DNA of 62,546 bases, filler included, from Collodictyon triciliatum (lineage: Eukaryota), in the NCBI GenBank assembly GCA_043381765.1. It is 7 parts of 7 records of this genome, joined end to end, with 100 filler letters (N's around TTAATTAATTAA, not from the genome) between each part and the next. Parts side by side here need not be neighbours in the genome. Positions count along the whole stretch, not along the records: positions 10,006 to 19,908 come from JBHJMP010002856.1; 6 more parts are not named here. One strand, 5' to 3'. Position numbers and translations under genes: made by a program. The notes under the pieces are model-generated. The model was not told where the DNA came from. It did not search any database and saw only the letters and a list, made by a program, of their open reading frames with translations. Of this stretch, positions 12,652-57,574 are shown piece after piece; the first letter of the stretch is position 1, and every line of letters starts with the position of its first letter.

Positions 12652-13067
12652 ATGCTGCCCGATGCGCCACGACTGAAGCAAAGCCTTCGCCTTGCTCTTC
12701 TAGTGTGTGTTTGCGTGGCCAGTTCGTGTGTGTTATGTGAAAACTGCAAAGTGCGACACGAAGGAAACCTCTATCTGTACGACTTTCACTCCCTTGCAAA
12801 CAAAGGTACTTCAGATCGCTTCCTTTTCTTCTTCAACTTTCCTTTTCATTTATATATTCTAGTCCTCTTTTTAGCCTTTTTTTTTATTTATCTTTCTCTA
12901 CCTATATCTCTATTTTATCTTCTTTTTATTAATTTTCTATTTGATTAAAACCCTTTTCACCACTATTACTTTTACTTTCTCTTTCTTTTACGTCAGCCAT
13001 ATTATCTTGTTTGCCCACTATATATTTTCACATATCGCTTATGTTGGTAGTGTTCTTTATCTTTTAT

Positions 13068-13143
<76 letters not shown>

Positions 13144-14579
13144 ATCTTTTTTTTTATTCCCTTGCATCTGACACTGCATTAGGACCTGTGAACGGGGACT
13201 GGGCGATTCCTCATCCGACAAGGCCGTGGCAGATTTATGCCAATCTCTGTGCAAACACAAACCGCAGATGTGGAAACATCGGAACAGATGTCTGTCTGGT
13301 AACGATGGATGACTCTCCCGTTGGCTCGATGAATGCGTCTGTTTGGAATAGCGCCAGCGTCATTTGGTCCACTGGCAGTGAAGAGCTCGGTATATAATTT
13401 CATTTGTATATGACTCTCACAAACTATACCATGCTATTTAACGAAAGCTGGATTCTTATTGTGTGCTGTTTTTGAATAGACGACAAGTTCAAGAGAATGT
13501 CTGGGGCATTTGTGCCTAGTTGTGAAGACCCATTTTCATGGGCAACGATAGATTCATCGCGTCTAGTACGAGGAGATGTTGCTGAATATATATCGACTAC
13601 ATTTATCATAAGCTGCAAAGAGGTTTAACTGCCTTTTTTTTCTCCATCTTAGAACTAGCTTTCACTTTGTTGTGGATATCTTTGAACCATTGACAAATAA
13701 ATTTATAATAGTCGCACTATGGGATACTGGTTGATTCAAATAAAAAAAACTAGTCAATATGTTTTTATTTCATTCCGATTTAATTGAAAATTATTTAAAT
13801 TATACCAAATATACCAAATAAAAAATAGGGTGTTGAACTAGAATTCCAGGAGGTGAAAGTTGGAGCGGATAAATGCACTTATGAACTTTATTTCAAAACA
13901 GAGAAGGCGTGTATGTTTCGCCCATATTTCATCGTTTACGTTGTTATGATATGCATTGGGTAAAAAAATTCTCTCAAATGCTATTTGAAAAACATGCTAT
14001 TTTGGTATAGTCCTTCAACGAGTTGTTGCTTCTTTTTTTTTTTTTTAGTTGTTTTCTTGAGCTTTTGCTTTCTTTATGTTTTCGTCTTTATTTATTCCCC
14101 ACCATCTGTGTAGCTCTATTGGAACGATGCTACTAGGTAGACACTATTCAAAGGGAATCCTCAAGCGTCAAACAGATTATTTAAAAATCAAGTTTCCTCT
14201 TGTTATTGACCTCGTACGTCATACAAATAACGATCGAATCACACTGTCTGTGGTTTACAGTTTTCTAGTATTTCCAATCGCACAGTTTTACTTAAGAGTT
14301 GGAATAGCGCAAAAATCAGAGGTATTTAAAAAAATTCTCATCGCAACTTTCATTGTCAGACGTAATATAATGATGTATACAAACATCTTAACCAGAAAAT
14401 ATACATAATAATGAATCGAACCATTTACTCATATCATCACAGTTTCTTTATCTGGTGGCCATGGGCGTGATTCTCTTCTTCTGTGGTCAACAATCAAGAA
14501 CAATTATTGGAGTACTTTTTTCACACTTCACATAATAATATCCTGAAATATGATATATATCCTGCATGAGTTATTAACG

Positions 14580-14675
<96 letters not shown>

Positions 14676-17600
14676 TACCTGCGCAGTCGCTTCTCGGAAC
14701 CCTTTTCACACTGTACTACACATATGCTGCAGCGATAATGTGGTTAGGGTTTTGGTTAAACAGTGTTGGAGCTTCACTGAATGTGGTAGTTGGCTTCTCG
14801 TGGATAATAATTGGAGGAATTGTTGCAACCTGTTTCTTCCTTCAATTTCTTTCCAACGTATGTTATTTCATATTTTGTTTTAAAATGCAATCATATTTGA
14901 ACGTTTCTTTCTAATAATTGGGGAGGAGAAGCCAGTGATTTACCTTGATATTTAACATAGGTGTATAATAAGAGCAATTTATTCTTTTCTGTATTCGATC
15001 TTGAGTCCGAGTTTCAAGAGTATGAAGATGATGTGACTACGTTACTTAAGATGAAGTTTAAAAAAGCTACAAATATGATAATAATTGGTAATAAAGGGAA
15101 TATTTTCTATCATTTGTTAAATGCATCATATATGTTTCATGTTTCATCATTACCACTATTCATTTATTTTTAAGTTAAACGAATTCCATCAATTCGATCT
15201 TTTTGCAACTAGAAATTATTTCATTTATTTATTAAGTTGTCATGAGACTCCCCATTTATTTATATTATGTTTTCTTATTAGATGACTACGTGCTAAACAA
15301 ACCAACACAATCATTTTTGGGCGTAACAATCAGCGAATGGAGTCATTTGATTACAATCATTAGGGAAACATTTATCCCAGACATTTTTCTTTTCATCAAA
15401 GAGAAGGAGAAAGACCCAATAGAAGAGGGTTCGATCAACTATTATAGATTATAAATTATATATATTCTTTTCCTTAGTTTTATTCATTTATGAGGAATAG
15501 GGCTGAAATTACTCTAAAAAATATTTTTTCTTAACAAATGTAGAGGTACAAAAGCGGTATCTTCCATTTTCACAACGGTATCTCTTTGGACTTGCTGGTT
15601 CCATAGCAACCGTGACGCAGCTTTCCATGCTTAGTGTTTGATTTGCTTTTGATAAGCGAAACATTTTTTAAAAAAAAAAAAAACAATAGGTCAATCGTAA
15701 AGAATAGAGATACTCAAAAAAAAAAAACGTAATTCTCTGACAATTCTACAGGTAAGTGGAGCAGTATCGACACGTGACTCAATCAGGGCTTTGGGTGACG
15801 GCTCTGGGGATGATGACATCAGTGGATTTGCGAATGCAGCTTTTGTAATGACAATAACTCTGTCAATTATTTGATTATTGCCTGTTAAATCACTCTCAAA
15901 AATCGGTTTTAGGTCGCTCTCTTGATGTGTATTGCAGCTTTATTTTTAGTCTCATGTTATGCTTGGAATTCTTCCATCCATACATACAAGTAATTGAATT
16001 TTTTCTTTTATTCGATTCAAAATCAAGTAATTGAATAGTATTATGCCTTAGGAATGCCTTATTAATATATACATATTTGTAATATAAATAGCCGTATTTC
16101 CTATGTTTTCATGACCGGCTTATTATCTACAACAAACTTAACAATAAATATTTTACGTTAAATAGGAAAAATCTGTTGAAAGTTCGAAAGGGAATTCCCT
16201 TTTATGAAAAAAAGAACAAATATTCACTGATGGATGCATCACTTTATGTTGGTATTCAAGTCGGTTACACATTCATAGGATATTTCTTTATCATATTCTG
16301 GTTATCTTTGGTCACATCAATAATCCTTGGTCTTTTCTACTTGTCTACCGTGAGTAATTATCTCTTTTTTTTTTTTTTCTATATACACTCCCCATGGAAA
16401 CATCTATCCTAAAATTGAGTATTATTGGTTGTCGCTCTCTAAAGGCGTTTTAATTTGCAGCTCAAATCACTATTCATTTCTTTACTCTTGGATTTCCTAT
16501 TTACTGTCATTCTTGGAAGTTTCTTGGCTACTTGTGCGAAAAAAATTATGGTCAAATACTTTTTCACAGTCGATAGGTACGTTACCAGCCATAAAATATG
16601 TTTATCTTAAATCGGTGCTTGGACAATAAAACATAAAACTCGGGCTTATTCTAGTTTTTGTGGTTTAACACATTTCAGGCGTTTTATGATCAAGAACCAT
16701 CTCCTATGGGGTCTTTATGAGAGTTTCAGTGTCTTCCTGGACATGTATGAGGGTTCCGATGAAAATATATTTAATCAAAAAAATCAAAAAAATTCAATAT
16801 GTGTTACAATAGTCTATTCTTTTTTTTTTTTTTTTTCCTATTGAAATAATGTAAATATCATCCCAGTATCGTTGGGGTTTGGTCAGCTCTCTCTCGCATC
16901 GGCAAGGTACTTACATCCAAATTAATTTTTATAGTATGATGTCATGAAATTCATGGCTGCTTTTTATAAAATTATGTGATTCTATTATTGCTGGTTCCTT
17001 TCCTTATTCATTAACTTATTTATGTATTATTTTTCTTTTTCAAGAACAAATATTGATATACGTCTTCCTCTTATATTCCTCCCTTTCTTCCAGGGAATGA
17101 TGTTTGTCGGTATCTTGTTTATCAGAACAGATTTATCTCTGTATCCAGGTTGCTATTTCTCCTCTTTTTTCTTTTTTCTTTTTTTGAATTGTAAAATCAC
17201 ATGAAAAGCTCATCTGTCTGATAAATCATGTTTTAACGTCGAAACCATCAAGTCCAGAAAGGACAGGAAAGGGGAATTACTTTCGTTTAATATTTTATAA
17301 ACATGATAAAACTAAGATGGCTTTACGGAGTATGACCAAGGACATTGCGCGTACATCGGAATGTTACTGCTTGAAAATAATCACAACAATCCTATCGTTT
17401 GGGTCTTTCTGCGAATTATAACATCACAATTGCAGGTTTTATTTTTGTTTAATATATAGTTCAACGGGATTTTCATTTATCAATTTAATCATTATTAAGC
17501 AACTACCGACATTTTTATGTTTGACGCAGATTGCCAATTCAACGGAGTCGAGCTCAAGTGGTGTGATGTCTGAAGAGGAACAACTTGAGATGCTTAATCG

Positions 17601-18029
17601 TGCGAGTGTCGAGTCTCCTCTTGCGCACTGTACCCTTTCAAAGGTGTCTATGAACAGCTCTTTAAATTATGTAGTGAATGGGAGTCAGATAGTGTTGTTA
17701 CGCATGAATAACCGGAAAGCAGTGTCTCTCCAAGACCCTTTCTTCTCTTTATCTTATTTGTATATGTATATATAACTTGTTTGTTTCTTCCATCTCAATC
17801 CATGCAACATATTTCATTCTAATTTATATCTTATGCATATGATTATCAAATAACATACCAGAAGGAATCTTCCCCAATAGTGATGGAGCAGCTCAAAGAC
17901 CAAGAGCCCCGCAAGCGCGCTCGAATTCGATGGTTCTTGGCTTACACACTCATCAGGAATCCTGCACTTTCCAAACTTCGAAAACATGCTTTGCTCAAAC
18001 ACCCTCAGATAATCACAAACTCTCATTGA
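12652..18029 (+). CDS. Signal peptide + MRH-like (M6P-receptor/ATG27-type) domain + STRA6-like multipass membrane protein
   Basis: N-term hydrophobic signal; C...YLYDFHSL...IYANLC...C...STTFIISC...CTYELYFKTEKAC (MRH pattern). STRA6-like motifs: YEDDVTTLLK, ASLYVGIQVGYTFIGY, YDQGHCAYIGMLLLENNHNNPI, RARIRWFLAYTLIRNPALSKLRK. Confidence 0.82.
13068..13143. repeat. (TATC)n intronic microsatellite
   Basis: Direct observation. Confidence 0.95.
14582..14674. repeat. (ATT)n intronic microsatellite
   Basis: Direct observation. Confidence 0.95.
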
Positions 18030-18937
18030 TTTAAAAAAATAAGGAAAAAGGAAAACACGGTGTTCTAAATTTGTAATATACATTTGTTAAAAAAAAAAAA
18101 AAAACATAAGTTTATATGATATTATAACATATAATGGGGTAAGTATGGTTTGACATGTGTTTTGACAGAAACGAAACTCTCATGCTGCAAAACTATGTGA
18201 CCAGAAGCTCACTGTTCGAACCATTAGGAAATGGTACGTTTGTCAAACGTGATATTAGTGTGGCATATACCAATTCTCCTCTTCTGCGAGAGAACTTTGC
18301 AAACGACATACCGATGATAGTGGTGTCAGAGAGACGGAGATCAATGGTGGTGTGAATGCAGAGAGAATCACAAGCGTGTTGTGGATGCGTGACGTTTCTA
18401 AGGCCGATAGAGAGAAACACAATTCTACACTTACCAACAGAAGGGATTGAGCGTGGGAATTCACAAGATGGCACATGGGTGTCTTGTGTGGTTAGCAAGC
18501 ATAAGAACTTGAATCTACTTTCCGAAAATGAAAGTAAAAAGTCCGTGATGTTAAATATGGAAAATGCAGTACTTGAAATTGAGCCATATAGTAATATATT
18601 ATCATTTGTATGTAGATTCCACATTATGCAATTAGGTCGGTTGTTCTGAGACTGTTTTGGTAGTGGGAAAGTCCGGAGGCGAATTACAGATGGGTTTGGT
18701 ATATAAACCCTTTGGACTCACCGTTTGGCTTTCTCTGGCGGCAATATCGGATGACTCTCATGCGTTGGCCATGTCATCCATTCGACTGTTACACCTTCTC
18801 TAAAACTAGCATCAGATTCAGTTTTATTCTAATGCTTTGCCTCTGTTATCTGCAAGTCTTTTATTTTAATATATAGTTCTGTTCTTGTAAAACTGATTGC
18901 ATTGGCTTCCTTGCTATTGCTTAACAGAAAGTTGGAA

Positions 18938-19577
18938 ATGGGAAAGCGCAAATCCAGCAGGAAGCCTGTCGATAGAAAGAAGCAGCAAGCCAAGTATCAC
19001 ATCGTACCCACGACCTTCAATTGTGTGCTTTGCAGCAACGAGGGTTCTGTCCAGATTGAAATGTTTGTCTTCTCCAAAAGTTTTTTTTATCCCCGCTCTT
19101 TCAAATAGATTTTATTTTACATTCTCTTGCATCATGCTCAGGGACAAACGGCACAACAAGGCTCTGTTATACTGCAAGGTCTGTTCTGAAAAGTGGGAGA
19201 CAAAGCTAAAGAGTAAGTGAACAGACTATAGGCTTCCTCATTTCCATCCACACATATTTACAAATTTGATGATTTTTTTTTTTGTACTTATGAAAGACTC
19301 CAACATCTGTATCTTAGTATATGATTTTCTTTCTCATTAGTTCTTTTACCTTTTTGCCCCTCTTTTATATAATTTTTCTTACTTTCTCATCTCATCTTAC
19401 TATTGTATCGCAATTCAGGGTATATACTGAAAAGAAAAAGAAAAAGAAAATAATCTTGCTAGCCATAAATATCTCCACCTTACGGTCATAGGCTTTTCAG
19501 AACCGGTGGACATCTACACAGAATGGACGGACGCGTGTGTGGATGTCCTCAAAAAGGCGGAGGAGGAGCGGCCATAA
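18938..19577 (+). CDS. ELOF1: Transcription elongation factor 1 homolog (Elf1 zinc ribbon), 3 exons
   Basis: MGKRKSSRKP...PTTFNCVLCSNEGSV|...CKVCSEKWET|...SEPVDIYTEWTDAC. Confidence 0.95.
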
Positions 19578-22563: not shown

Positions 22564-25500
22564 AAGAACTTGCTGCTATGGAACCCATCGACCGCGCCAG
22601 AATTCGTGACAGAGTTTCTATCATGGCCAAACATTTCAGTCCATGTGATGCTCCACTTTTTCTTAAGATCTATTGTCATTATGAAAGGATTATCAAGATG
22701 TATCATGACAAACCTTGTTATTATTTATTCTTAAAAACAGCTTTTGAGGGATTCTAATGTTATTTATAAACATCCCAGCTGGAAATGAGGAGGTTGTTCA
22801 GGGCCACATCGAAAGACTTTTCCAGGGCTGCCAAATTAATCCCGAAGAAGCATTTGATGATGTATACGAGCAAATTGTTCGTAAGAAACTTATTCTTTTT
22901 CTATTTGCTTTTGTTTTTGTGATTTATTTAAAAGAGTAAAGTGAATTTTTATAGGATTGAGTACAAGTTATCCTTTCATATTTCTCCATTTATTAACCTA
23001 TTTTTATTATTTACTTGGTGGTAGGTCAACCTGGCTCCCTTGACCACGCTGAATTGGACAAGTATTACTCCCAAGCTGCAGAGTCTTCGAGTGATTGGAT
23101 AAAGGTGAGTTCTTTAATTGAAAATGAATAAATATTCATTTATGCGAGGTCATTAACTCCCGATTTTGATGGTGGACTAAACACTCATTTTTTTTATTTG
23201 AATTTTTTTTAACAGCAATTTGAGTCAGCCAGTACACCCCACGGGGACCCAACAATTCAAGAATTTATCGACTTTATGAAAAGCTCAGAAGATCCAAAGT
23301 ATGTCTTTTGTCTACATCACTTTTGTTTACTTGGACTTGGCCCATTTTCCATTTAAGTAAGCATTTAAAAATCCTGTTCGCTTACAAATACATATCAGAT
23401 TCAGAAATTCCAAATTCCTTGACTTTCTGGGTTTCATGAACCAGGGCAATCTTGACCCTGAAGCTGAGGTAATGCACAGAAAAACATCCATTTTTAAGAG
23501 TGGCGCACCTAACGGGCTACACTTGCTTTTGTCCACAAACCAACCCTTACATCACCGTCAATCAAAGTATATGGTGTCATTTACCAGAAATTGTCTCCTT
23601 GAAACATGTGTATCAGATCGATGGGCGGCAGCGCGAATACGAATTCCAGTATCCTGTTTTGAATCGCTACCTCGACCACCCGGAACCCCTGGACGAAGGA
23701 ATTAGGCTTTTTGAGAATGGGATGCTTCCCGAAGCTGTCGAGGCATTTGAAGCTGAGGTCGTAATTTACACGGCGCCTCTCGAATGATTGCATTGAGTAT
23801 AGAAACATAATGGAATATGAGTGATAGTTGGATTATAACAGTTCTCTCACGCATGCATTTTCACATGTTCAGGTGAAAAACCAACCAGAAAATTCTGAAG
23901 GCTGGATGCGCCTTGGTCTTGCTCATGCAGAAAACGATGAAGATGACAAGTAAGTCATTAAAATGGGGCAAATCAATTATGCAGGGGTTTTTTAAAAAAA
24001 AAAAACCTTTTTTTTTTGATTCGAAGATATACGGGCTTAAAATGAATAAGATGAGTAAAGGATTAAACCTATATTGTCTAAGGGCCATTGCAGCTTTGGA
24101 GCGGTCTATCGCATGTGATTCGACCAACCTGCAGGCGTATATTGGAATGGCTGTCAGTTATGCCAATCTTCTGCAGTACAGCCAATCAATCAACGTACTT
24201 CGTCAGTGGATAAAATCACACACCTTGTACGGCGGAATCGAACCCCCGGCAGTGGATGCAGAGGGCTTTGACTTGAATCCCCATCAACAAGTATTTGTAC
24301 CTAATTTGATTGTCTGCTTTCATTTCTTTAGCGGGAGTCGTTTTCTCAAGAAGTGTCTCGAAATCATGACAGGTTGTGCACATGTTCCAAGAGGCTGCTC
24401 GGCTGTCTCCGGAGGATCCCGATATCTTTGTGAGTCCAACTCACCAGCTCGCAACCTATTATTCTATTATTCTAGTTTTCTAGTTTTCTAGTTTTCTATT
24501 GTTCTATTATTCTAGTTTTTTATTGTTCTATTGTTCTATTGTTCTATTGTTCTATTGTTCTATTGTTCTATTGTTCTATTGTTCTATTGTTCTATTGTTC
24601 TATTGTTCTATTGTTCTATTGTTCTATTGTTCTATTGTTCTATTGTTCTATTACCCTGTTATCCTGTTATCCTGTTATCCTGTTATCCTGTTATCCTGTT
24701 ATCCTGTTATCCTGTTATCCTGTTATCCTGTTATCCTGTTATCCTGTTATCCTGTTATCCTGTTATCCTATTATGCTGTTATGCTGTTATGCTGTTATGC
24801 TGTTATGCTGTTATGCTATTATTTTTTTTTCCTTTATTCGATGCTGTTATGCTATTATGCTATTATGCTATTATGCTATTATGCTATTATGCTATTATGC
24901 TATTATGCTATTATGCTATTATGCTATTATGCTATTATGCTATTATCCGTCGATGCGTACTGCTATTTTATCGCGCACAGACCCATTCATCGTTGATGTC
25001 TCACCGTATCGTCTCCCTTGCATCCTTTCGCCATTCATCTCCCTGTATGTCTGCCTGGCGGGCAGATTGCACTCGGTGTTCTCTTCAACCTGAGCGCGGA
25101 CTACGACAATGCCATCGAGGCATTCCGACACGCCCTTGAGCTCCGCCCGGATGACTACACCTTGTGGAACAAACTCGGCGCGACGCAGGCAAACTCCAAT
25201 CGCAGTGCAGACGCTGTCGATTCATACAAGCACTGTCTCGAAATCAAACCGACGTATGTGCGCGGGTGGACAAACATGGGTTTGCCTCATATTTCTATCT
25301 TTTTGCATCCTCTCCAGTTGTGTCGACTTAGTGGTGGTCATTACCTGGCGATACCGATTTCCCCAACCCAATTTTTTTGGCCATCGTTGGAATACCAAGA
25401 AAAAATATGAGGAAAAAAAAAGAGCAAGATATAGGATATTTAGACAGAAGAATGGATAACCCTCGGTCGGCAGAGAACATTTGCGTGCATTGCGAACCGA

Positions 25501-54879: not shown

Positions 54880-57574
54880 CCCTCCAGCCTTGGTGCGTTC
54901 ATTTTCAAGGGCAAAAATAAAGCCCCTTGTTCAACCAGAGGATCAAGTCGATAAAAATACTGGGAGATGTGGATTGGTCAATCTAGGAAATACATGTTAC
55001 ATGAATTCAGTCCTTCAGGTGCTTTGGTATGATGCTCTATAGGTTCAGAGCACAAAGCTTTCTCTCCTTTTTTTTTTCTTCTCTGCCTATATGTATTGAT
55101 AAACTTCACATCATCTTTAGGCATCATTATTGTCTTTCTATAAGAAAATAATTCATATAGCCGTCATTTGGAGTCACTAGTAACTTTTTTTTTTTTTTTG
55201 CAGCCACTCGGATACTTTACGCGAGTTCCTTTTTCGCCATAAAATCGATGTTAATTCCATTCATGGGACAGAGAAAGAGAGTAATATACACTCTAGCCCC
55301 ACGGAAGCTCCAGCCAGTCCCTCTTTAGCATCTTCGAGAAAGCCGAGGTCTCGCGTCACAAAGAAAACTTCTCTTGTAATTCCAACAGAGATTCACAAGC
55401 AGTATGTTTCTCAAAACGATTGTGATAAAATAACTGACATTCTTTCTGCCATCTTTCTTGAGCCATTTTTCTCCCATTTGTTCGGTTTCGAGTAATTCTT
55501 CCGCTTAATCTGATATTTTGTAACCATTAATATTATTATCATCAAGTCCAGTTAGCCATAACTTTTCAAAACAATATGACATATCGACAGGCTTCTTACG
55601 TATGAACTAAGAGGTGTATTTCACGCTATGTGGTATGGAAAAACATCTTCTTTTGCTCCAGAGTCATTCTTAGCTGCAATATGGGCACTAATTCCTGCGT
55701 TTCGCGGCTATTCTCAGCAGGTTTAATGTGAATTAACTTCGACAGAACCATACATTTATGAATCCATATGCAGCTAAATATATTTAGAGATATGAAACAA
55801 TTATTCACTTTGAGAACCCTACGAAGGATGCTCAAGAGTTTCTTCACTATGTGCTGGATAGGCTGCAATCCGAAGGTGTCGAGACAGTATTTCCTTTACA
55901 AAAGATTGATTTATCGCCAGAGGACAAAAATGCTGGATATATCATGCGACAGATATTCTGCGGAAAATTGTGCAGTGTGGTAACATTCATGATTCTTATC
56001 CCAAATATGTGCCCTAGTTCTAAAAAAGATAAACAAACAAATGAATTTTTTTTAAAAAAAAAATACATTAGAATCAAATGCATTAACTAATTCAAGGTAA
56101 TCTGCATCACATTGATGCATTTGTGAGGCTTTTTTTTTCATAAAAATGCATGTATAGGTTACATGCTCCAGCTGTAAAAATAATTCATCTAAAGAGGAGA
56201 CCTTTTTTGGTAAATGATACAAACCTACCTAGCACACTGCAAAATACTAGTATTTTCTTTATTGTTTTGGTCTTGCATTGATTGACGGTTGATTTCCCTC
56301 ATTGTCTATTTTTACAGACTTGTCAGTCCCTATGCCAGAAGAGTTTTCCTCCGCCAATAAACGAAAACGACCAAATATTGGAGAATGCAGTCTCGCCGGT
56401 AACGCATTTAAATTCGTCTTTTAATTTATTATGTTAAAGAGAGCTTTAAAATCGATCTTTAAATTAATTAAGCTGGAATCATCGCTACTGCAAATGTAAC
56501 TTTTTTTTTGTTTTGTTTGTTTGTTTGTTTGACAGATTGCCTAAAGCTATTCACCGAAACAGAAGAACTCTCTGGTTCCAACAAGTATTATTGTGAAAAA
56601 TGCAGTGGATATCAAGATGCATCCAAGAAAATAATTTTATCGTCTCTTCCAAAGGTTGATATAGCACCATGGCTTATTTTTTTTTCATTATTATATGCTT
56701 CATCATTTTATTCCAGTTTTTCTATCTCTTAAGACCACAACACTTATTAAAATGATCCTCCAGAATTTTTGTCTCCATATTAAAAGATTTGGTGGATATG
56801 GGGTTAGGCGCTCAAAAATTGGTATGCATCAAACTGTAGTGCGCAAAATAAATCTTATCATGAAGCAAGCAAAAAAATATATATTTTCCTAACAATGATA
56901 GAAAGGTTGAGAAAGAGCACATAGCGATGCCACTAACTTTACATCCAATTGATGCTGCTCGATAAACTATACAATTTATATGACGTACTTTAAAATAATG
57001 TAGACACTTGGATAAAATTCCCTCTACGCGGATTGGATTTTAAACTCTTCAGCTCAGCAAAAATGAATACAATATACGATTGTTATGGGGTTGTTTGTCA
57101 TTCTGGTTCAGGGTATAGATATGGCTCAATTATGTATTCATGTTTACCATGTGTGGATGTATCGTCTTTGAAAGCTATGTTAAAACCACTTGTTTCAATT
57201 TTCTGACCTACACTCTCACAATAGACTGGGTTCTGGCCATTACACCTCATACGTCTATAACCACCCATCAAGTACCTTATCTATTTTCAATTAACAGGAC
57301 TTTAGCTGTATTATCGCCTTTATTTGCTACACCATATCCAAACGATACGGTCATATTTATTTTCATTCGTGTAACGGATTTAGATGAATGGCTTTTTTTC
57401 AACGATAAGACTGTGAAGAATGTCACTGAAGAGCAAGTCGTGACCGCGCAGGCCTACATCCTATTTTATCGGCGACGCCCGACATATAGTGCTACTTCTG
57501 TTTCCAATATTCTGGACATCTTGAAGCAAGAGGAGTTGGAAACAATCCGACGAGGGTTCCAGGCGGTTGAGTGA
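54880..57574 (+). CDS. Ubiquitin-specific protease (peptidase C19; USP3/44/49-like), 5' truncated
   Basis: Cys box GLVNLGNTCYMNSVLQ; GYSQQ|DAQEF; CSSC...YYCEKC; LHIKRF; His box VVCHSG..GSGHYTSY; WLFFND; QAYILFYRR. Confidence 0.95.

Follow-up and report, generated by a model that had tools for sequence, protein, structure and literature searches.

A Collodictyon triciliatum gene joining a STRA6-family membrane protein to a probable MRH-type N-terminal head

Work on STRA6, which in vertebrates binds RBP4 directly, has dealt almost exclusively with its role as a receptor for RBP4 and retinol in vertebrates. Here we describe a gene of Collodictyon triciliatum (GenBank assembly GCA_043381765.1) whose product is a STRA6 homologue in its C-terminal half and carries, ahead of its first membrane helix, a hydrophobic leader and a cysteine-rich head that is probably of the mannose 6-phosphate receptor homology (MRH) kind. 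The gene occupies positions 12652-18029 (plus strand) of a stretch of 62,546 nucleotides, hereafter the window, that was assembled from seven parts of seven records of this genome, and lies in the part derived from JBHJMP010002856.1. Taking the protein as a whole, we lean towards a single 826-residue membrane protein in which a STRA6-like body of ~600 residues stands behind the leader and a disulfide-rich MRH-type head.

Gene structure and transcripts

No long open reading frame (ORF) is present on the plus strand between 12652 and 18029; the region holds a string of short open pieces which, joined at natural GT..AG sites, form a single gene of 20 exons (Table 1) with a 2481-nucleotide coding sequence in one frame. 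It opens with an ATG at 12652, closes with a TGA at 18027-18029 and encodes a product of 826 residues. All 19 introns have GT..AG ends, and the reading frame is unbroken across each of the 19 junctions. The host gene style is one of many short exons, AT-rich introns of 90-380 nucleotides, a weak donor consensus and frequent TAG acceptors. A tblastn comparison of the 826-residue model back onto the 62.5-kb window found no paralogue elsewhere in it.

Transcript evidence was drawn from contigs of three public runs of one study (X1, X2 and X3, the run kind being guessed as RNA), which were placed on positions 12000-18600. Contigs of X1 and X2 skip introns with GT..AG ends, and their loose 5′ ends carry letters resembling a template-switch oligo, which we take to be the SMART oligo; for these two reasons we treat them as cDNA. 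Since the X2 contigs are 90-99% alike to the window, their source would be a close relative. Run X3 gave nothing beyond 31-letter low-complexity matches to the same interval.

The longest path through the gene is provided by X1 record 1 (1458 nucleotides), which runs from the end of exon 3 across the joint 13958>14113 to exon 13, its pieces following in the order 13823-13958, 14113-14319, 14687-14857, 14961-15086, 15281-15427 and onward to 16166-16349. At least 13 of the 19 junctions are seen as X1 joints (named by their flanking exons: 4>5, 5>6, 7>8, 8>9, 9>10, 10>11, 11>12, and 14>15 through 19>20), and at least seven are common to X1 and X2 contigs. Junctions 6>7, 12>13 and 13>14 are consistent with the record arithmetic of the listed pieces, and junction 3>4 is implied by the loose letters ahead of 13823, in which the end of exon 3 can be read. 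For exon 1 and for junctions 1>2 and 2>3 the matches listed give no RNA cover, and these parts were modelled from the sequence.

Because X1 record 1 spans the fusion point at 13958>14113, the head and body halves are carried on one mRNA, and because the intron at 13960-14113 interrupts the first membrane helix, they cannot be separate genes. The initial annotation had given the gene exactly the bounds found here and had proposed an in-frame splice into a multipass region on one transcript rather than on separate ones; the splice and the single transcript are borne out by the cDNA, with the joints 13958>14113 and 14319>14441 falling on GT..AG introns and a single X1 contig crossing the fusion point.

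Table 1. Exons of the gene at 12652-18029 of the window. Joints are written as the last and first aligned positions of neighbouring contig pieces; P0004, P0006 and P0008 are proteins to which the model was aligned; aa, amino acid residues.
Exon	Positions	Strand	Content	Evidence
1	12652..12805	+	start codon, leader aa 1-29 (12652-12738), first Cys, YDFHSL strand	ORF, frame, donor GT, hydropathy
2	13183..13389	+	core of Cys-rich head, aa 52-120	AG/GT ends, frame, ESM Atlas
3	13480..13622	+	head, aa 121-168	frame; last bases in loose end of X1 record 1
4	13829..13959	+	end of head (CTYELYFKTEKAC; to 13912), membrane helix 1 from 13928 on (first half)	X1 piece 13823-13958
5	14114..14321	+	rest of helix 1 (second half, ending at 14138), then a basic stretch and membrane segment 2	joints 13958>14113 (X1), 14319>14441 (X1, X2)
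6	14443..14511	+	membrane segment 3	joint 14319>14441; 71 letters between X1 record 1 pieces fit a 69-nucleotide exon
7	14687..14857	+	membrane segments 4-5	X1 record 1 and X2 record 3 pieces; joint 14857>14961; hydropathy
8	14961..15087	+	long loop begins	joints 14857>14961, 15086>15281 (X1, X2)
9	15282..15428	+	loop	joints 15086>15281, 15427>15543
10	15544..15635	+	loop	joints 15427>15543, 15635>15752 (X1); RNA fixes donor at 15635
11	15752..15844	+	loop end; STRA6-family homology from aa 510 (15830)	joints 15635>15752, 15844>15913; family HMM
12	15913..15989	+	membrane segment aa 509-527	joint 15844>15913; X1 record 1 arithmetic fits exons 10-12
13	16166..16349	+	membrane segments	X1 record 1 piece 16166-16349; aligned to P0008, P0004
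14	16461..16576	+	membrane segment	joint 16574>16677 (X1)
15	16679..16744	+		joints 16574>16677, 16744>16867
16	16867..16906	+		joints 16744>16867, 16904>17092 (X1, X2)
17	17094..17148	+		joints 16904>17092, 17146>17315 (X1, X2)
18	17317..17435	+	conserved HNNP block of STRA6 family	PF14752; aligned to P0006, P0004, P0008
19	17530..17643	+	acidic/Ser-rich linker	joints 17431>17526, 17641>17860
20	17862..18029	+	basic amphipathic helix (17904-17996) like STRA6 BP2 region, TGA stop	PF14752, PDB sequence matches

Several further features of the transcripts were recorded. One X2 contig joins 16353 to 16677 (GT..TC, with one extra T) and skips exon 14, whose 116 nucleotides could not be lost without a change of frame; an error of splicing in the related organism or of assembly may account for this form. 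X1 record 2 continues from exon 20 to 18039, 10 nucleotides beyond the stop and at an A-run, then jumps over 188 nucleotides with TA..AG ends and resumes at 18228-18533 with 11 mismatches. Two transcripts were probably fused at poly(A) in this contig, and a chimera of this kind would indicate a very short 3′ untranslated region and an adjoining transcribed unit at 18.2-18.5 kb. cDNA 5′ ends with letters like the template-switch oligo also fall inside the gene, at ~13606 in exon 3 (X1) and at 14185 in exon 5 and 16300 in exon 13 (X2); such ends may reflect cDNA truncation, or transcription starting within the gene and giving head-less isoforms. Two introns contain long microsatellites, namely (CTAT)n in intron 1 (13060-13145) and ~100 nucleotides of (ATT)n in intron 6 (14575-14676).

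The STRA6-like body

Pfam scans were run exon by exon. Exon 20 alone matches PF14752 (RBP_receptor) with 33.3 bits against a cut-off of 25 (E=3e-8, positions 577-605 of the 605 in the profile), and exon 18 alone matches the same profile with 17.4 bits (E=0.002, positions 510-543), in agreement with the STRA6 hallmarks claimed by the initial annotation. The product of exon 20 also aligns with residues 601-631 of zebrafish STRA6 (5sy1_A, E=0.0022) and with the 29-residue peptide 5k8q_B (E=0.0041), which we take to be the calmodulin-binding BP2 region of STRA6; exon 18 had no match among PDB sequences. When exon 20 was searched exhaustively with HMMER against 1.84 billion representatives, 10 proteins were returned at E<=0.001, every one of them above the PF14752 cut-off (27-239 bits), and the tail motif is conserved in the family; among these proteins is a STRA6-like protein of Aplysia californica (P0004).

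The spliced model extends this similarity well beyond the tail. It aligns with P0008 over residues 536-824 (90.9 bits) and with P0004 over residues 509-817 (87.8 bits), and it scores 135 bits against a local family hidden Markov model (HMM), whose positions 317-638 correspond to residues 510-819 of the model. This HMM was built from 17 sequences, comprising 16 of the 43 fetched proteins (those of at least 590 residues, the named ones all gastropod) and the ORF of metagenome locus L001 described below, with shorter and low-complexity proteins left out. On the strength of these alignments we identify residues 510-819, a region that opens with membrane segment six and closes with the basic helix at the C-terminus, as a true STRA6/RBP_receptor homologue.

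Hydropathy of the model reveals five hydrophobic segments (residues 202-355), a loop of ~150 residues and a second cluster of segments (509-674). The same layout is found in the L001 ORF and in five gastropod proteins, in which the first segment starts at residues 8-10, or at residue 56 in L001. Based on layout rather than homology, the helix directly behind the head may be regarded as the counterpart of STRA6 helix 1. Since this helix stands where the relatives have their first one, the head would be an enlarged N-terminal ectodomain and not a separate receptor.

The cysteine-rich head

A hydrophobic leader at residues 11-29 (Kyte-Doolittle 2.24) is consistent with the signal peptide of the initial annotation, and the Cys-patterned N-terminal domain proposed there is present with all of its listed motifs (YDFHSL, YANLC, TTFIISC and CTYELYFKTEKAC). 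The head spans residues 30-196 (167 residues), ends five residues ahead of the membrane helix and contains eight Cys (at 32, 74, 81, 89, 135, 166, 184 and 196) and one N-glycosylation sequon. The motif CTYELYFKTEKAC fits the pattern C.Y.[FILV].[FW].[ST]..AC, of which it is the single occurrence in the six frames of the window. We take this pattern to be the closing strand of CI-MPR-type repeats, and the Cys spacing fits the MRH framework; the pattern was written after the sequence had been seen, so that the match lends qualitative support.

As the head is split over four exons, the profile, PDB, fold and ESM Atlas searches each took single exons. The ESM Atlas compares sequences by means of a language model, and by its own rating such resemblance counts as a lead. 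For exon 2 (68 residues) its nearest named clusters are ATG27 (0.96, with 191 of 256 features shared) and CIMR (0.93 and 0.92), and the ten best named matches all belong to one family or clan; in the calibration of this comparison about 1% of shuffled sequences attain 0.96, and a count of 191 shared features is typical of same-family matches. Exon 4 (43 residues) has its nearest clusters in CIMR (0.82), PRKCSH_1/CIMR (0.81), PRKCSH_1/PRKCSH (0.80) and CIMR/ATG27 (0.79). Because two non-overlapping exons point to the same small clan, we favour that clan for the head, which is probably MRH/P-lectin-like (the clan of CIMR, ATG27 and PRKCSH) and quite likely to have the MRH fold itself.

Relatives and distribution

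A profile search seeded with snail sequences and that of the window returned 20 proteins, 19 of them named gastropod STRA6-like proteins, and in all 20 PF14752 is the sole Pfam domain. Neither exon 2 nor exon 20 (the latter against longer proteins) gave a match in word-indexed protein searches. A metagenome scan reduced 47 pattern matches to five confirmed loci, none of which has a head-like match (best E=7.3). One of these, L001, contains an uninterrupted and complete STRA6-like ORF of 733 residues (181-2388; PF14752 186 bits, profile positions 13-560), which looks like a cDNA or an intron-free eukaryotic gene and has ~55 residues before its first helix and no head. The initial annotation had stated that vertebrate STRA6 has no MRH domain; the profile-search proteins and L001 are likewise without such a head.

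Two other loci are worth describing. L002 carries the STRA6 tail motif (5988-6296, 23 bits against the family HMM) on a GC-rich eukaryotic contig full of a short dispersed repeat, and the STRA6 family may accordingly reach into GC-rich non-animal eukaryotes. In L005 N-terminal pieces of one STRA6-like gene (1873-2768) lie behind the tail of another (396-620) in the same orientation, so that STRA6-like genes may be tandemly duplicated in its source. STRA6 is called animal-specific in a passage of one article (PMC5977736), and a passage of another mentions stra6 expression in sponges (PMC7743902). A full-text literature search, with supplements and subscription journals outside its reach, turned up no article that brings STRA6 together with ATG27, an MRH domain or mannose 6-phosphate receptor homology; PF14752 is listed for one paper on rotifers.

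Weighing of the interpretations

A number of results weigh against a STRA6-like protein with an MRH head. With respect to the body, the stretch 197-510, which takes in membrane segments 1 to 5 as well as the loop, compares to the family alignment with a hhalign probability of 0.13. As no similarity to the family can be detected there, the STRA6-like nature of the protein is demonstrable for its C-terminal half only. The Pfam match of P0004, for its part, begins only at position 158 of the profile. With respect to the head, none of its four exons, taken one by one, matches a Pfam profile at E<=10, those of the MRH clan (CIMR PF00878, ATG27 PF09451, PRKCSH PF07915 and PF13015, Man-6-P_recep PF02157) included, and PDB sequence searches with exons 2, 3 and 4 found no MRH chain, the sole matches being acyltransferases (E~0.5) and a mitoribosomal protein (E=1.8). 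The AlphaFold2 model of exon 2 alone is unusable (mean predicted local distance difference test score 39.3), the Atlas ‘recognition’ is low for exons 2 and 4 (1404 and 1355), and the Atlas scores of exon 4 (0.79-0.82) are within the range reached by a third of shuffled sequences. Finally, no second example of such a head joined to a STRA6 body was found among the relatives searched. The initial annotation had called the protein a STRA6 homologue with an MRH head. The first part of this description stands for the C-terminal half, by virtue of PF14752, the family HMM and the zebrafish tail, but not for residues 197-510; the second part is supported as probable by the Atlas look-alikes of exons 2 and 4, but not by any profile, PDB or fold match on single exons.

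The main rival explanation, which we consider doubtful, accepts the MRH fold of the head and denies it a lectin function. The head would then be a luminal sorting or quality-control module of the ATG27 kind, steering the body through Golgi and endosomes rather than trapping a ligand. Like ATG27, which is not known to have the sugar-binding residues, the head would lack them, and it is an ATG27-type cluster that is the best Atlas look-alike of exon 2 (0.96); in addition, by eye and in unaligned sequences, Cys89 is followed by Leu, where sugar-binding CI-MPR-type domains have Gln. On the other hand, true lectins are among the members of the CIMR and PRKCSH clusters, whose scores are nearly as high, and with the positions unaligned a loss of the sugar-binding residues is conjectural.

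It is rather unlikely, in our judgement, that the head is an unrelated Cys-rich ectodomain resembling MRH domains by chance. Such an ectodomain would account for the missing profile, PDB sequence and fold support on single exons, the low Atlas recognition, the chance-range scores of exon 4 and a motif comparison made after the sequence had been seen. It accounts poorly for two non-overlapping exons independently reaching the same small clan, for an exon 2 score attained by so few shuffled sequences together with a feature count typical of one family, and for the agreement of the Cys spacing and the C-terminal C.Y.L.F.T..AC motif with the MRH framework. An artefact of the gene model, by which a small type-I MRH receptor gene and an adjacent STRA6-like gene were wrongly joined, is largely refuted and barely credible: exon 1 and its two following junctions are without RNA support among the matches listed and cDNA 5′ ends do lie inside the gene, but one spliced contig from exon 3 to exon 13 crosses both 13958>14113 and 14319>14441, the membrane helix is interrupted by a phase 2 intron, the frame is kept over 19 junctions, and the halves have neither a stop nor a plausible start between them.

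Proposed mechanism and significance

Under the preferred reading of a STRA6-like body with an MRH-type head, a cleavable leader would be followed by a disulfide-rich head on the extracellular or luminal side, beside helix 1. By analogy with STRA6 the protein would be a dimeric, calmodulin-associated receptor, and the homology of its second bundle and tail suggests that it may take a small lipid over from a carrier outside and deliver it to the membrane in the STRA6 manner. The built-in head might serve for docking; most likely it would keep a glycosylated ligand or carrier positioned above the outer cleft, and the hand-over could be regulated through the putative calmodulin-binding tail.

A STRA6-family member with a head of this kind was not seen in the relatives or the literature searched. 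Its own lectin-like outer domain suggests that the protein has an inbuilt site for an outside partner, probably a glycosylated one, and such a partner would therefore be experimentally reachable. A broader and quite speculative proposal, to which we give little weight, is that non-vertebrate STRA6 proteins are general receptors unloading lipids from glycosylated carriers, that different lineages bolted differing lectin heads onto the same body, the one here being of the MRH kind, and that the docking of RBP4 in vertebrates is a derived, head-less arrangement. If this were true, the ligand of the head would give a direct handle on the ancestral cargo of the STRA6 family.

Other features of the window

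The remaining genes of the window are an ordinary eukaryotic set. Exon-sized ORFs match Folliculin (136-1113, Pfam 62.5 bits), DNAAF5-like TPR/HEAT repeats of a cilium-assembly factor (9173-9616, 37.3 bits), the Elf1 zinc ribbon (18833-19108, 29.7 bits, just below the cut-off), TPR repeats that by eye are PEX5-like (24997-25410) and a UCH protease (57119-57574, 23.9 bits). Rfam and tRNA scans of the window gave no matches. Runs of N, which are assembly gaps or masked sequence, are found at ~20.3-21.2 kb and 21.9-22.6 kb and near 39.9 and 54.7 kb.

Comparison with known systems

The protein of the window shares with vertebrate STRA6 (5SY1) and its paralogue STRA6L/RBPR2 the RBP_receptor signature, the HNNP block, the basic C-terminal helix and a similar number and layout of hydrophobic segments. 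It differs from vertebrate STRA6 in having a signal peptide and a Cys-rich head of ~165 residues before the first helix, in an N-terminal five-segment bundle without detectable homology, and in that no RBP4-binding loop was identified in it. Passages of a review (PMC12953553) describe STRA6 as homodimeric, each protomer having nine membrane helices, with calmodulin bound constitutively and a lateral window through which retinol is released into the bilayer. The best full-length relatives are the gastropod STRA6-like proteins (Aplysia, Physella, Biomphalaria and Lymnaea) and the L001 ORF, with which the C-terminal motif is common; these, in contrast, are head-less, their polypeptides entering the first segment almost at once (somewhat later in L001).

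The N-terminal part of the protein invites a different comparison, namely with type-I MRH proteins such as the cation-dependent mannose 6-phosphate receptor, ATG27, the CI-MPR repeats and the MRH domains of glucosidase II beta/OS-9. As in these, a leader precedes a Cys-framed domain of ~150 residues, luminal in the known proteins and putatively so here, with a helix directly behind it. Whereas the type-I proteins end in a short sorting tail, the protein of the window continues into a polytopic STRA6-like body of ~600 residues.

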